From a virus (lineage: Duplodnaviria; Caudoviricetes): 64,000 nt of DNA. The notes beneath the pieces were generated by a model that saw nothing but the letters and a program-made list of their open reading frames with translations, was not told where the DNA came from and did not search any database. The stretch lies in IMG/VR virus record IMGVR_UViG_3300016482_000089, positions 1-64,000 of that record; one strand, given 5' to 3'. Within the stretch, counting starts at the first letter, position 1. Each line of letters begins with the position of its first letter. A program made the translations under genes and the position numbers. Shown piece by piece: positions 33,439 to 38,515 of the stretch.

Positions 33439-33597
33439 TCAGGCCTTGGCGCGGGACCGCGAGGTCGTCTTCGCCTTCGCCGTGGAGGCGCGGGCCGGGG
33501 CCTTCGTGGGGGCCTTGGCCGTCGCCTTCGCGGGCGCCTTCGCCTTCGTGGCGGCGGCGGGGGTCTTCGACTTCGTCGCGGTGCGGGTGGCCGGCAT
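33439..33597 (-). CDS. Histone H1-like basic peptide (52 aa)
   Basis: MPATRTATKSKTPAAATKAKAPAKATAKAPTKAP...; GGAGG RBS; downstream hairpin. Confidence 0.65.
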   Translation of the reverse strand: MPATRTATKSKTPAAATKAKAPAKATAKAPTKAPARASTAKAKTTSRSRAKA

Positions 33598-33662
33598 CGC
33601 CGTGCCTCCAGGGGGCATGATGGGACAGGGCTGGCGCGGCCCCCGGCGCGCCGCGGCCCATC

Positions 33663-34244
33663 TCAGAGCAGCGGCGGCGTCGGCGCCTGCAGCGCGCCCT
33701 CCCGGCGGAGCCACAGCAGGACCTCGCGGCAGGCTTGGCAGTCCGCCGCGGCGCTGTGCGCGTTCTCCAGTTGCCGCTCGGTCGCCAGCGCGTAAAGCTC
33801 CGCGAGGCTCGCGCCGCTGCCTGCCGCCTTCGCCAGCGGGCGCCCGGATTGCATGGTGCAGATCCGGGTGACCGGCCAGGGCGGCTCGCCGACACGCAGC
33901 TGGGCGTACACCATCTCGATGACCCGCAGGTCGAACTCAAGGTTGTGCGCCGCAACCTCGTCGGCCGCGTCGAGCAGCGTGTTGAAGATCGAGAGCGCCG
34001 CCTTGGCCTGCACGCCCTCCCGCTCGGCCCGCTGGATGGTGATGCCGTGGGCGCGCAACGCGCCCACGGCCACCTGGCGGCCAGGCAGGTACGGCTTGAT
34101 CAGCACCGAGATGGCGCCGACCAGCCGCGCGTCGTCCCAGAGCTGGGCGCCGAGCTCCAGCAGGATGGGCTGGCTCGGGTGGGTGGCCGGGTAGTTCTGG
34201 CTCGGCCAGCCCGAGGTCTCGGTGTCGAAGATGAGGGTCTTCAT
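33663..34244 (-). CDS. DEDDh 3'-5' exonuclease (DnaQ-like)
   Basis: FDTETSG, AHNLEFD, AHSAAAD motifs. Confidence 0.9.
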   Translation of the reverse strand: MKTLIFDTETSGWPSQNYPATHPSQPILLELGAQLWDDARLVGAISVLIKPYLPGRQVAVGALRAHGITIQRAEREGVQAKAALSIFNTLLDAADEVAAHNLEFDLRVIEMVYAQLRVGEPPWPVTRICTMQSGRPLAKAAGSGASLAELYALATERQLENAHSAAADCQACREVLLWLRREGALQAPTPPLL

Positions 34245-34270
34245 GGGAGGGTCACATAGTGTTGTGTTGG

Positions 34271-35641
34271 CTATTCGGATTGGCGTGTAGAATGAGCATC
34301 GCGCCGGAACCACTCGGTCGTGTGGAAACGGTGACAGGTCGCGCAGACCTGCACCCGGTTGCCGGGCTCCGCCTTCCCGCCAGCCCGGAGGGGCTTGAGG
34401 TGCATGGTCTGCAACACCTCCCGCTCGAAGGTGCCGAGGCAGATGTCGCATCGGAGCATGCTCTCCGTTGGTCGTGGCTGCCCCTTCTGGGCCAGCATCC
34501 GGGCGCGCAGCACCTCGAAGGAGTAGCCGCGCCCGGCTCGGTTCACCTGCTTCACCAGCCCGTTCAGGGTCTCCGTCCGGGCGTTGGTGATGCGGTGGTC
34601 CCAATAGGCGAACACTGCCCCGCGCCAGTTCTTGACGGCGGTCAGCAGCGGCTTGAACGCCTTGGCCGTGTCCGGCGGCAGCGCCGCCGCCCATGCGTCG
34701 TAGGCCGCCTCGGCCTCCTCGCGGGTGGTGATGGACCACAGGTCGTAGAACGCCTCCTTGGCGTCGTAGGCTGCCTTGAGCGCGGGCGGGGCATTGGCCA
34801 GCCAGCCGGACAGGGCCAGTTCGCCGCGCGCCTTGAGGGACGCGCGGCGGGCCAGCAGGAGGTAGCGGCCCCGCTTGGACAGGCGCCGGGCGTTGGGGCT
34901 GAGGTCGCGCTGGATGGCCTTGCGGACGCCCTCCAAGGCATCGGACGCCATCCGCTGGACGTGCCACTTGTCCACCACCACGGCGGCCTGCGGCAGCAGC
35001 ATGGCCACCACGTCGAAGTAGGGCCGGTGCATGTCGATGGTCACCACCTTCACCCGGTCCTTGCCGGGCAGGCGGGACACCCAGCGGGCCACGGTGGCCT
35101 TGTCGCGCTCGGCCAGCATGTCGATCAGCAGCCCCTGCTCAGCGTCCGTCAGGACGGCGCGGGCGCGCTTCATAATGTGGACCTCGTCAATGCCGAGGAC
35201 GCGGGGCGCGGAGGGCCGATGGGCAGCGTCGAGGGCGGCGATGCGGTCGGCGCAGATGAGCCGGACCGTCTTCTCGTCAATGCCGATGTCGTCCGCGACC
35301 TGCGTGAAGGGCCGCTTGAGACCCTGTTCCTCGATGTATTCCCGGCATCGCACCGTCATTCGGCGCCCCTCCTCCATGTCCGGGAGAGGCTGGAGGAAGG
35401 TGCTGGCGCAGGCCCGGCAGCGGTAGCGGCGCCGCTCCACGCGGATGACGACCTGCCTGCCCCGGATGGGGGCGTCCCGGTAGTCCACCACCTTGGACCC
35501 GTGGCGGTAGAGTTGTCCGACCACCCCGCACTTGGCGCAGGTGTCCGGCTCCGGGTCGTAGGACGCCTCGGCGGTGAACAGGTCGGTTCCGGGGTGGACC
35601 GCGTTCACGGTCCACCCCGGCAGGTAGAGGAAGTTGGCCAT
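34271..35641 (-). CDS. ISL3 transposase with C-terminal HNH-like domain
   Basis: zf-ISL3 CAKCG..RYRCRAC; LGIDE, TIDM, VDKWHV, NARTETLN; tail RCDIC..MHLKPLRAGG..PGNRVQVCATCHRFH. Confidence 0.88.
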   Translation of the reverse strand: MANFLYLPGWTVNAVHPGTDLFTAEASYDPEPDTCAKCGVVGQLYRHGSKVVDYRDAPIRGRQVVIRVERRRYRCRACASTFLQPLPDMEEGRRMTVRCREYIEEQGLKRPFTQVADDIGIDEKTVRLICADRIAALDAAHRPSAPRVLGIDEVHIMKRARAVLTDAEQGLLIDMLAERDKATVARWVSRLPGKDRVKVVTIDMHRPYFDVVAMLLPQAAVVVDKWHVQRMASDALEGVRKAIQRDLSPNARRLSKRGRYLLLARRASLKARGELALSGWLANAPPALKAAYDAKEAFYDLWSITTREEAEAAYDAWAAALPPDTAKAFKPLLTAVKNWRGAVFAYWDHRITNARTETLNGLVKQVNRAGRGYSFEVLRARMLAQKGQPRPTESMLRCDICLGTFEREVLQTMHLKPLRAGGKAEPGNRVQVCATCHRFHTTEWFRRDAHSTRQSE

Positions 35642-35650
35642 GTGGCCAAC

Positions 35651-36271
35651 CTAGACGGCATTGGCGGCCTCCGGCAGCAGCGCGCTAAGGGCGGCCACGA
35701 TGCGCTGTGCATGAGCGGGCTCCACCTTTCCGGCTTCCACGTCCCGCAGTGCGCGGTCGTATCCGGCCTGCTCAGCGTCCCTTGCATGCTCCCCGATCTG
35801 AGCTTGCACGCGGCGAAGCTGCTTCATGGCCTCGCCGTTCTCTGCGTGAAGGTCGCCGACCAGCCGCGCCAAGTTCTCCTCGGCCGCCCGAAGCGCCTTG
35901 ACCAAACCGCGCTCCTCCCCCGCCTTGATGCGGCAGGCCGGATCACACGAGCAGTCGAAGCCGAAATGGTCGCGCGCCTCGTCTTCGGTGACGAAGACCT
36001 CGTCGCAGTGGAAGCAGCGCCACCGTCGCGGGTTGCCAGCGCTTCGCAGCCGCGTTCGCTCCGCCCGAGCGCCCGCCGCCTCAGCATCGGCCAGCATGCG
36101 TTCCGCGACCGTCGCGCGCTTGGAAAGAGACCGAAGGGCGGCGGCGGCGGCGGCCAGCGTGCCGTCCACGAAGTCATGAGGCATCTCATACCTGACGCGC
36201 CCGTCGCTCAGGTCCGCGCATTCCGCCGCCAGCCGCTCCACCGTCTCCGGGCTCAAGTCAACGTCGCTCAT
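35651..36271 (-). CDS. IS passenger: C2H2-type Zn-finger/coiled-coil phage-like protein
   Basis: WRCFHCDEVF...ARDHFG; lies inside the TIRs. Confidence 0.65.
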   Translation of the reverse strand: MSDVDLSPETVERLAAECADLSDGRVRYEMPHDFVDGTLAAAAAALRSLSKRATVAERMLADAEAAGARAERTRLRSAGNPRRWRCFHCDEVFVTEDEARDHFGFDCSCDPACRIKAGEERGLVKALRAAEENLARLVGDLHAENGEAMKQLRRVQAQIGEHARDAEQAGYDRALRDVEAGKVEPAHAQRIVAALSALLPEAANAV

Positions 36272-36383
36272 AGCCATCCCTTTCCACACGGAAATCCGAC
36301 TTATGGATACGATGCCGACACGCTCCTTTCAACACGGAAATCCGAATGGCCGTTGTGTTTCGCGCCCGTCCGCAAGCGGTGGG

Positions 36384-36716
36384 TCAGTCGGTGATCGTCT
36401 GCACCGCGATGGACTCCTCGAACTCCCCCGCCGTCCGCTCCTTCGCGCGGCGGAACGCCTCGTCGCTGACGTCGCGCCAGAGATCCGCGTTCGGCTCGCC
36501 GGTCAGGAACTCCCGGCGGATCCTGCAGGCCGTGCCGGCCGCCTTGTCGAGCAGCCCGTGCACGCAGACCGTCAGCGCCTGGGTCGTGTCGAGGCCGGTC
36601 GCCTTCAGCAGCGGGATCGTCTCCAGGATCAGGCGATTGAGCTGCCGGTCGAAGTCCTGGCGCAGCGCATAGGCCGCCTCCGGCGGCTGGAATGGAGCGT
36701 CCTTCTTCTCCATCAC
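36384..36716 (-). CDS. Hypothetical protein
   Basis: 110 aa ORF. Confidence 0.55.
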   Translation of the reverse strand: MMEKKDAPFQPPEAAYALRQDFDRQLNRLILETIPLLKATGLDTTQALTVCVHGLLDKAAGTACRIRREFLTGEPNADLWRDVSDEAFRRAKERTAGEFEESIAVQTITD

Positions 36717-36898
36717 CGCGCCCCCCGCACGGCCTGGATCGGCTCGCAGCGGACATGCGCCACCGCCCGCCCCGTCGTCTCGAGGTGATAGGCCTGCACC
36801 GGCGCCAGCGCGCGGCAGGCCTCCAGGCTCTCCACCGGCACGCTGACGGGCATCGCCCGCGGGTCGGTGAGGAACAGCACCAACAGCCAGGTTCGCAT
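36713..36898 (-). CDS. Small hypothetical protein
   Basis: MRTWLLVLFL...SLEAC...VRCEP. Confidence 0.5.
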   Translation of the reverse strand: MRTWLLVLFLTDPRAMPVSVPVESLEACRALAPVQAYHLETTGRAVAHVRCEPIQAVRGAR

Positions 36899-36908
36899 TC
36901 GATCTCCC

Positions 36909-37331
36909 TCAGGCCGCTTCCCGGGCGGCCGGCCGCATCCAGGTCACCGCCATCAGCGCGCGGCGGCACCACTCCACGTCGAACAGGCCGATGTGGCAGA
37001 GCTCGGGAGGCAGCCCGAGCAGCTGCGCCAGCTCGCGATAGGCCTCGGAGCGGTCCACGCCCTCCGACTGCCAGAGCGGGTCGAAGGCGGCGTGCACCGA
37101 GCGCCGCCAGCCGCGCACCTCCTGGGTCGCCAGCGTGCCCAGCGGGCGGATCGTGCCCGGGTGGCAGCCGATCGCCGCGTCGCAGGGCCGGCAGACCCAG
37201 AACTGCTTCTCGGCCAGCTTGCCGCGCCGGTAGAGCTCGTCGCCGCGCAGCAGGATGGCGACGTGCCCGCAGCTGCAGATCGGCCGGCGGCCGTAGAACT
37301 TCGGGGGCGCGGGGAGGGGGTGGTCAGTCAC
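36909..37331 (-). CDS. DUF3268-like zinc-finger protein
   Basis: CSCG..WVCRPCDAAIGCHPGT..PLGTLA..HAAFDPLW..CHIGLFD. Confidence 0.8.
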   Translation of the reverse strand: MTDHPLPAPPKFYGRRPICSCGHVAILLRGDELYRRGKLAEKQFWVCRPCDAAIGCHPGTIRPLGTLATQEVRGWRRSVHAAFDPLWQSEGVDRSEAYRELAQLLGLPPELCHIGLFDVEWCRRALMAVTWMRPAAREAA

Positions 37332-37506
37332 GGAACACCTGGAACATCTGCACAATGCAGGTGAGCGCCAGGAAGACCGCGCAGCCGGCGATCGCCGCCG
37401 ACAGGACGGCATAACCCTCAGCGAAGGCCGCCACGGCGGCGCTCGTCGAGAGTGACGCCCAAACTGCGAGCAGGAACGCGCGGCGGACGGTGGGGTCCTT
37501 AGGCAT
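37324..37506 (-). CDS. Small two-TM membrane protein
   Basis: Two hydrophobic segments. Confidence 0.5.
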   Translation of the reverse strand: MPKDPTVRRAFLLAVWASLSTSAAVAAFAEGYAVLSAAIAGCAVFLALTCIVQMFQVFRD

Positions 37507-38515
37507 CGGCCGGCATCTCCCGCCACTCGCGGCCGTCGAGCTCGGCGCCCGCGCGCCACTTCCGGACCCGCCGCATGGCGACGCCCTGGCCTTCCAGCTC
37601 GCCCACCGACAGGTCGGGCGCGACCACCGCCCGCCGGCCGTCCTCGGCGACGATGACGTCGCCGGCGGCGATCATCTGCCCGATGCCGTCCGGCCCGGCG
37701 GGCGCCGGCGCCCAATCCCCCCACTGCTTGAAGAAGAACGGCACGCGCGCCTCGACACACTGGTCGCGCAGGCTGCGGAACCAGTCGGGGTGCGGCGCCC
37801 GCCGCCCGGGGCCGCTCTCGCCGCCGGCGATCACCCAGTGAATGCGGAGCGGGGCCGCGTCGGCAGGGAAGGGGCCGGTGATGTCCCATTCGCCGATGTA
37901 GGGCATCCCACTCTCGACGTACTGCCCGCGCAGCGCGTCCAGATGGATGCCGGCGCGTGCGGAGCCGGGCTTCTGCGGCAGCAGGCACACCCGCGTCAGG
38001 TCAACGGGCCCGAGGAGCGGCTCGCACGACAGGAACCGCACCCGTGCCGGCACGGAGAGGAGATGCGGGATCCGGCGCTCGGCCTCGGCCTGGTTCTCGA
38101 CGGTCGTCCCGAGCCAGACATTGCCGAAGGCAGGCCAGTCCTCCGGCAGCATCTTCACGATGTTCTGGGGCCGCTTCGTCAGGAGCAGCCAGGTCAGCCA
38201 CGGCGTCGCGCGGATCAGCCGCCACAGGTCGACGCGCCACTCCGCCGGAACCTGGTTGTCGAAGACATCGGCGAGAGAGCTGCAGAACACCTTCGCGGGT
38301 CGTCCGGCGGCCTCCGCCACGCGGTTCCAGCGCACCGGCTGGAGCCAGTTCTCGGCCGAGGTCCGCCGCCGCTCGCCCTGCCACAGCTCCGGGCTGCCGG
38401 TGCGGCGCGCCCAGGACTCGGCATAGCAGTGGTCGCAGGCCGGGCTGATCTTGGTGCAGCCGAGCCACGCGTTGAACGTGTGGTCGCACCACTCGATGGC
38501 GCTGTTCTCGCCCAT
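37499..38515 (-). CDS. Phage Gp37/Gp68 (DUF5131) family protein
   Basis: IEWCDHTFNAWLGCTKISPACDHCYA; LLLTKRP; FLSCEPLL; WVIAGGESG; PFFFKQWG. Confidence 0.92.
   Translation of the reverse strand: MGENSAIEWCDHTFNAWLGCTKISPACDHCYAESWARRTGSPELWQGERRRTSAENWLQPVRWNRVAEAAGRPAKVFCSSLADVFDNQVPAEWRVDLWRLIRATPWLTWLLLTKRPQNIVKMLPEDWPAFGNVWLGTTVENQAEAERRIPHLLSVPARVRFLSCEPLLGPVDLTRVCLLPQKPGSARAGIHLDALRGQYVESGMPYIGEWDITGPFPADAAPLRIHWVIAGGESGPGRRAPHPDWFRSLRDQCVEARVPFFFKQWGDWAPAPAGPDGIGQMIAAGDVIVAEDGRRAVVAPDLSVGELEGQGVAMRRVRKWRAGAELDGREWREMPADA

Follow-up and report, generated by a model that had tools for sequence, protein, structure and literature searches.

Insertion sequences (ISs) of the ISL3 family are defined in ISfinder by terminal inverted repeats (TIRs) that start with GG and by an 8-bp duplication of the target. 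Two annotated elements allow a direct comparison with the one described here, which lies on the minus strand at 34269-36351 of a 64,000-nucleotide stretch of Caudoviricetes DNA (positions 1 to 64,000 of IMG/VR virus record IMGVR_UViG_3300016482_000089, hereafter the window). The first is represented by transposases from Ralstonia megaplasmids that carry the NCBI name "ISL3-like element ISRso21 family transposase" and align across residues 1-453 of the window transposase. The second is the annotated IS of Burkholderia phage Bcep22 (gp32-gp34, 2,158 bp), which aligns across residues 1-455. At 41-43% identity, both share with the window element the full transposase architecture, including a C-terminal tail with four cysteines (Cys4), as well as a stop codon at or inside the repeat, a cargo placed upstream of the transposase and a size of about 2.1 kb. 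They differ in the cargo itself, which is a methyltransferase in ISRso21, two small open reading frames (ORFs) in Bcep22 and a different gene in the window. They also differ in the details of the tail. The tails of ISRso21 and Bcep22 have HH or AH, carry Arg or Lys for Asn and stay under the Pfam HNH threshold, whereas the window tail has the full H-N-H set; in the ISRso21 family, HH-x2-P is followed by Arg at the Asn position and then by C-x2-C-H-RRFHT. The window element is a new member of an ISL3 branch that is already catalogued in databases. Burkholderia ISBma1, described as an ISL3-family element (PMC6350997), is probably a further member of this branch, judging only from the annotation cited there and from a 482-aa match in B. 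pseudomallei.

For the tail, described counterparts are found among HNH nucleases. The Gme HNH nicking endonuclease (4H9D) and the En domain of a group II intron reverse transcriptase (6ME0) are likewise built on a Cys4 zinc scaffold, with their motifs spaced as in the tail. Group II introns provide a functional precedent, as their second strand is nicked by an HNH domain that is fused to the mobility enzyme. The setting is nevertheless different: 4H9D has no partner enzyme and 6ME0 has a reverse transcriptase, whereas the tail is attached to a DDE transposase and has a Met replacing the Asp or His in front of the catalytic His. The reading favoured here, with a probability of roughly 0.6, is that the window element belongs to a large ISL3 sub-branch with an ancestral HNH module that is complete here and decayed in most lineages; the guess that the module still acts as an accessory nickase is included in it. 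Members of the sub-branch share a slot for cargo that separates one repeat from the transposase gene, two sites of the 8-mer TTCCACAC per end, and a C-terminal HNH domain (beta-beta-alpha-metal, with Cys4-zinc). The module very probably existed in the branch ancestor and persisted in complete form in scattered lineages, including that of the window.

The main body of the protein is assigned to ISL3 by several models. The transposase matches the equivalog transpos_ISL3 (NF033550) with 293.9 bits against a cut-off of 180. Zn_ribbon_ISL3 (PF14690) covers residues 32-78 with 41.9 bits and HTH_Tnp_ISL3 (PF13542) covers residues 85-130 with 31.3 bits, both above their cut-offs, and the catalytic domain DDE_Tnp_ISL3 (PF01610) ends at residue 382. 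D152, D224 and E357 are invariant in an alignment of 30 family members and, by their position, are the presumed catalytic triad. After the DDE domain, 74 residues remain. When the whole protein is scanned, Pfam HNH (PF01844) is found on residues 398-440 with E 4e-4 and 20.9 bits, just under the cut-off of 21.4; with the last 69 aa alone it reaches E 2e-5 and 25.1 bits, which is over the cut-off. The spacing of the tail (C-x2-C, x12, H-x2-P, x3, GG, x5, N, x4, C-x2-C-H-x2-H) is the canonical HNH pattern, and the general-base His (H414), the structural Asn (N428) and the final metal-binding His (H440) are all present at their canonical distances. A profile made from 30 tails sampled across the family was compared with solved structures, and it placed the Gme HNH nickase 4H9D at the top (E 9.4e-7), with the En (HNH) domain of the group II intron maturase 6ME0 at E 1.7e-6 and McrA (6GHC) at E 5.7e-4. 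The AlphaFold model of the tail has a mean predicted local distance difference test score (pLDDT) of 75, with 80-87 across the module; one strand ends at H414, one follows N428, and a short helix is located at the second CxxC. The best structural match in Foldseek is again 4H9D (E 7.5e-3, probability 1.0; Z 4.6, root-mean-square deviation 2.5 A over 53 residues), and further matches are the HNH domains of TasH, McrA and Cas9. These scores support the evidence from the residues but fall short of proving the fold. Judged from its sequence, the tail is a true HNH homologue.

The relatives of the transposase were collected as the best 120 database homologues and 80 IMG/VR loci, and 197 non-redundant sequences were left after the removal of duplicates. 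A CxxC...CxxC tail ends 84 of the 120 best database homologues; it is carried by 138 of the 197 relatives and is missing from 58. Matching repeats and a perfect 8-bp duplication are present in 52 related loci, which, like the window element, have the GG-starting TIRs and the duplication length of ISL3. In the maximum-likelihood tree of the transposase core, all tail-less sequences apart from one frameshifted copy lie to one side of a single split. Two relatives are damaged near the 3' end. In one of them (L038:2992-4347), two in-frame stops stand directly ahead of the final Ser-Glu codons, and in the other (L048) the second CxxC is lost, apparently through a frameshift. When this one transposase was used to scan viral and genome contigs, nothing useful emerged, the lone genome match being a distant relative (29%). 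The "protein with HNH endonuclease domain" of Escherichia phage Fraca was considered as an example of the architecture and rejected; this ISL3 transposase lacks the Cys4 tail and has no Pfam HNH match.

An earlier note, made from the letters of the window, had described an intact ISL3 element with a transposase running past its DDE domain into an HNH-like tail. Much of this description holds. The size of the element, its repeats and its duplication agree with the sequence and with a repeat finder, the H, N, H and zinc-binding cysteines are confirmed by Pfam, spacing, profile and tail model, and the stop codon (TAG, 34271-34273) does lie within the TIR. Two of the checks that it had proposed, a profile and AlphaFold comparison of the tail and a search for further ISL3-HNH architectures, gave the 4H9D match with the expected strands and short helix, and the tailed relatives counted above. 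Its statement that the DDE region is normally where an ISL3 transposase stops, on the other hand, fails for a branch in which most relatives are tailed. An entry of the fusion in ISfinder would, according to the note, have counted against it, and in substance the fusion is already on record, since the ISRso21-family transposases and the Bcep22 IS carry a homologous tail. Its interpretation is thus supported as regards the intact ISL3 IS and the real HNH module, and finds no support as regards a fusion unusual for ISL3 and a role in homing or retention. No paper describing the tail of this ISL3 branch as HNH was found in the searchable literature, which also appears to contain no description of how the tail decays or of how it overlaps with the end sites.

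Conservation within the tail is uneven. No change is seen at the four cysteines in the family alignment, whereas His, Asn and the final His are all kept in only 25 of the 138 tails, and the first (general-base) His is present in about half. The complete H/N/H state is scattered over the tree and requires at least 15 state changes. Since 15 independent gains of the full catalytic signature are implausible, the branch ancestor very probably had a complete HNH, which later decayed repeatedly. H414, P417, GG and N428 are retained in at least 10 scattered lineages at a root-to-tip distance of about 1 substitution per site, with the neighbouring residues randomised. The nearest relative (65% identity) has kept all motif residues with only 52% of tail positions identical. 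The retention of the motif while its surroundings diverged argues for continued selection on these residues in the lineages with a complete HNH. Other elements (L067, L072, L078, L090 and others) have lost all three catalytic positions and have clean repeats and perfect 8-bp duplications. These dead-tail elements inserted cleanly, and HNH catalysis is thus not needed for transposition; the DDE chemistry is independent of an active HNH. As the HNH has decayed in most lineages, it is also not part of the core DDE transposition chemistry.

A part of the tail is read from DNA that also forms the end of the element. Sites of TTCCACAC were counted in 38 tail-bearing elements, reading toward each tip and allowing one mismatch. 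TTCCACAC starts 24 nt from both tips. A second copy at the transposase end starts at 59 nt in 25 of the 38 elements, the window among them, and it is formed by the codons TTC-CAC-ACG (Phe-His-Thr, or FHT), the most conserved segment of the tail. The FHT codons begin 59 nt from the tip in 23 of the 26 elements with the motif, even where the ORF stops early. The Thr of FHT is encoded only by ACG or ACA, while the Gly codons of the conserved GRGY motif vary freely. The fixed position and the restricted codons indicate that the FHT segment is under constraint at the level of DNA. The "ST" that is conserved close to the C-terminus is explained by the outer copy, which is translated as Ser-Thr. The near-invariance of FHT was rejected as a sign of catalytic selection: the motif coincides with a DNA repeat, the codon of H440 sits in it, and the conservation of H440 is therefore uninformative on catalysis. 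The TTCCACAC copies are very likely paired sites at which the transposase would bind. In a group of elements (L067, L069, L072, L074, L078, L047) with FHT-less tails or, in one case, a longer tail, the inner site at the transposase end is placed at about 70 nt. An inner site at about 70 nt is also seen at the cargo end and in tail-less elements, and a position of 59 nt accompanies the standard FHT tail.

Several observations weigh against the reading of an ancestral module that is complete and possibly active in the window. Support for the bipartition of tailed and tail-less sequences is low (0.21). The Asn position is mostly occupied by Lys or Arg (K 53, N 33, R 16 of 138), and H440, the final His, is not countable as catalytic selection. 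The residue preceding the general-base His is Met413. Characterised HNH enzymes mostly have Asp or His there, which acts as a metal ligand, and only 20 of the 67 relatives that have the His have D, H, E or N in front of it. The Foldseek and Z scores of the tail model are weak, as can be expected for a domain of about 45 residues. Finally, the full-length AlphaFold model leaves the tail unplaced relative to the DDE site, with pLDDT values of 54-65 in the tail and below 50 in the linker.

That the window tail is a still-active accessory nickase is suggested tentatively and is rated at slightly less than even odds. The tail would nick DNA held in the transposition complex, for example the strand left uncut by the DDE site. 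Its job would resemble that of TnsA in Tn7, with the difference that nuclease and transposase are here domains of one protein. TnsA, which has a restriction-enzyme fold and is not an HNH enzyme, is a protein of its own. The likeness to Tn7 TnsA/TnsB is only conceptual, in that a DDE transposase is combined with a second nuclease for the other strand, and there is no relation in sequence or fold. The parts of the tail that are conserved across the branch (the four cysteines, Arg438 and FHT) would reflect a zinc-stabilised fold together with DNA-level constraint, since the FHT codons are themselves a copy of the subterminal repeat. A more far-reaching version is improbable. According to it, the lineages with the full signature would possess a two-nuclease enzyme, with cutting and joining of the transferred strand by the DDE site and nicking of its counterpart, at the target or the ends, by the HNH domain; this would switch ISL3 between copy-out and cut-out transposition, and the module would be kept or lost depending on phage life.

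The alternative that survives best is a tail that does not cut, even in the window. It would be a zinc-stabilised module for DNA binding or assembly, derived from an HNH domain and helping to hold the ends or the target. In its favour, the four cysteines are invariant, whereas the catalytic His is found in about half of the branch and the Asn in a quarter; the mobility of dead-tail elements, the Met before the general-base His in the window copy and the DNA constraint on FHT fit it as well. However, H414, P417, GG and N428 are free of DNA constraint and persist in the diverged lineages described above, which is hard to explain without selection on residues of the catalytic type. This alternative is judged to be somewhat unlikely.

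A homing or retention nuclease is a very unlikely explanation of the tail. Its cuts in empty sites or sister copies would be repaired in a way that restores the element, as has been proposed for TnpB/IscB; the earlier note had mentioned such a role as possible for this element. The sampled relatives sit in phage-like DNA, and HNH domains serve homing in many phage genes. IscB, of the IscB/TnpB (OMEGA) systems, is likewise transposon-borne and contains an HNH domain. However, the window protein has no RuvC domain, and the IscB model NF040563 matches only its HNH part, with 14.6 bits against a cut-off of 175. It has a DDE transposase of its own, and no guide RNA was found, as an Rfam scan of 33500-37000 gave no structured RNA family. 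The 8-bp targets vary among the 52 verified insertions, so that there is no fixed site to home to. In addition, the 45-residue HNH is without an evident specificity domain of its own, and fresh insertions are seen even among dead-tail copies. That a cysteine-rich tail resembles HNH by chance is scarcely credible: although the single-sequence scores are modest, zinc fingers are also among the profile matches, and a phmmer search with the 72-aa tail against 1.8 billion representatives (too low in power to map the distribution of the tail) returned 16 weak matches with some cysteine repeats, the family profile puts true HNH enzymes on top at E ~1e-6 in alignments that pair the motif residues, HNH enzymes lead the structural matches, and the motif spacing is canonical.

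The boundaries of the element, located from its repeats and duplication, enclose 2,083 bp (Table 1). The TIR at the transposase end is GGCTATTCGGATTGGCGTGTAGAATG and the one at the cargo end, when reverse-complemented, is GGCCATTCGGATTTCCGTGTTGAAAG; 21 of 26 positions agree on a direct count, and the repeat finder scored the same inverted repeats as 24 nt with 83%. A perfect 8-bp target site duplication (TSD) abuts both tips, and the chance of a perfect 8-mer at one fixed position is about 1.5e-5. The element is an intact ISL3 IS that was recently inserted in a phage genome of putative freshwater origin, and it is present as a single copy within the 82,944-bp IMG/VR virus record. Just one sequencing run, from a freshwater metagenome, contains the window in full, and the DNA may stem from it.

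Table 1. Coordinates of the ISL3 element and its parts in the window.
Feature	Position	Strand	Basis
TSD copy 1, GTTGTGTT	34261..34268	.	identical 8-mer just outside the tip
Whole element: repeat, cargo gene, transposase, repeat	34269..36351	-	TIRs and TSD
TIR, transposase end; encodes the last 8 codons (HSTRQSE and stop)	34269..34294	.	sequence, repeat finder
Transposase gene, 456 aa and stop	34271..35641	-	ORF; NCBIfam transpos_ISL3 match
Outer TTCCACAC copy (here TTCTACAC), 24 nt from the tip, read as Ser-Thr	34285..34292	-	24 nt in 31/38 tailed elements
HNH module, residues 398-441 (putative zinc and active-site residues C398/C401, H414, P417, G421-G422, N428, C433/C436, H437, H440)	34319..34450	-	Pfam, profile, model
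Inner TTCCACAC copy, transposase end, 59 nt from the tip, read as Phe439-His440-Thr441 (last HNH His included)	34320..34327	-	site count
DDE_Tnp_ISL3 catalytic domain, residues 149-382	34496..35197	-	Pfam, E 2.1e-54
N-terminal zinc ribbon and helix-turn-helix, presumed end-binding part	35252..35548	-	Pfam
Passenger gene orfA, 208 aa	35651..36277	-	ORF 36277..35654 and stop; homology search
Inner TTCCACAC copy, cargo end, 70 nt from the tip	36282..36289	+	69 or 70 nt in 34/38 tailed elements
TIR, cargo end; includes the outer 8-mer TTCAACAC at 36328-36335	36326..36351	.	sequence, repeat finder
TSD copy 2, GTTGTGTT	36352..36359	.	identical 8-mer just outside the tip

The insertion spot is intergenic. 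The gene downstream of it, at a distance of 16 bp, encodes an RNase_T-type exonuclease (33666-34244, minus strand) and may have been separated from its promoter by the IS. A palindrome-like sequence, CACAT-AGTG-TTGTG at 34253-34266, overlaps the target duplication. Two genes upstream of the insertion there is a DUF5131 (phage Gp37/Gp68-type) gene (37502-38515, minus strand, 301.8 bits), which fits a phage early or DNA-metabolism region. Traces of the element were found in an unrelated landfill metagenome. A 118-nt contig is equal to 34269-34303 of the element from the exact tip, with zero differences, and its remaining 83 nt are unlike the window flank. Because the tip is joined there to foreign DNA, the lineage of the element appears to exist elsewhere at another site. 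Other contigs of the same run contain a relative of the 3' half of the transposase, about 93-98% identical over the matching pieces. An exact search of viral contigs for the reconstructed empty site gave no match. No excision or circle joints were found among the contigs of four runs, which are assembled contigs rather than reads and give no evidence either way. A promoter and terminator scan of the element found no site. With no promoter-like site, the same orientation as the flanking phage genes and orfA abutting the transposase start, the genes are plausibly expressed through read-through and translational coupling.

The cargo gene orfA is absent from the earlier note. Its stop codon is placed 9 nt ahead of the transposase ATG. 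Residues 83-200 are 45-89% identical to small proteins of phage early regions, and the genes for these homologues adjoin GcrA-like, ParB-like and integrase genes and lie outside ISL3 elements. The first 80 residues of the window orfA are unique, and searches of the protein against Pfam and PHROG gave no match. In the orfA family (116 matches, including L003-L009), a W-x-C-x-H-C ... H-F motif is followed by a coiled-coil-like stretch. A cargo slot is common to the relatives: in all 52 verified elements, the repeat is separated from the start of the transposase by 380-1,300 bp that contain ORFs on the same strand. Pfam was applied to 83 cargo ORFs, orfA included, and it identified 4 DNA methylases, 2 PAPS-reductase-like proteins, DpdA, Lar, NADAR and 3 YopX, with the majority of the ORFs having no Pfam match. 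The cargo ORF of several relatives ends directly at the start codon of the transposase or overlaps with it (L095:1004-1501/1501-2922; L020:2429-3001/3001), and this arrangement suggests that the transposase is translationally coupled to the cargo.

The association of the branch with phages is strong. Beyond the virus collection, 7 tailed elements including that of the window were inspected, and all 7 have phage-like neighbourhoods. It is not exclusive, as ISRso21 sits among metabolic genes. An identical 468-aa tailed transposase is encoded at L103:6001-7407 and L104:4976-6382 on phage-like backbones that differ from each other: GcrA, RecT and an S24 peptidase are found on the first, and ERF, YqaJ and CHAP on the second. 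This implies recent movement between phages.

Sequences of tailed members have been present in databases for years. A nuclease domain that is fused across a whole sub-branch is a concrete handle on second-strand processing in ISL3. If the two-nuclease version is true, it would be the first case of a DDE transposase that has its own HNH nickase for the second strand, and the handling of the second strand in ISL3 would become directly testable. The picture of the family may be more useful than the single element: small ISL3 transposons in phage-like DNA with swappable cargo, which is often a DNA methylase, a PAPS-reductase-like gene, DpdA or Lar, with links to DNA modification and anti-restriction. 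ISs are regarded as rare in wild-type phages (PMC3091744). A branch that resides mostly in phage DNA would therefore, if confirmed, be informative on how phages exchange anti-restriction genes.

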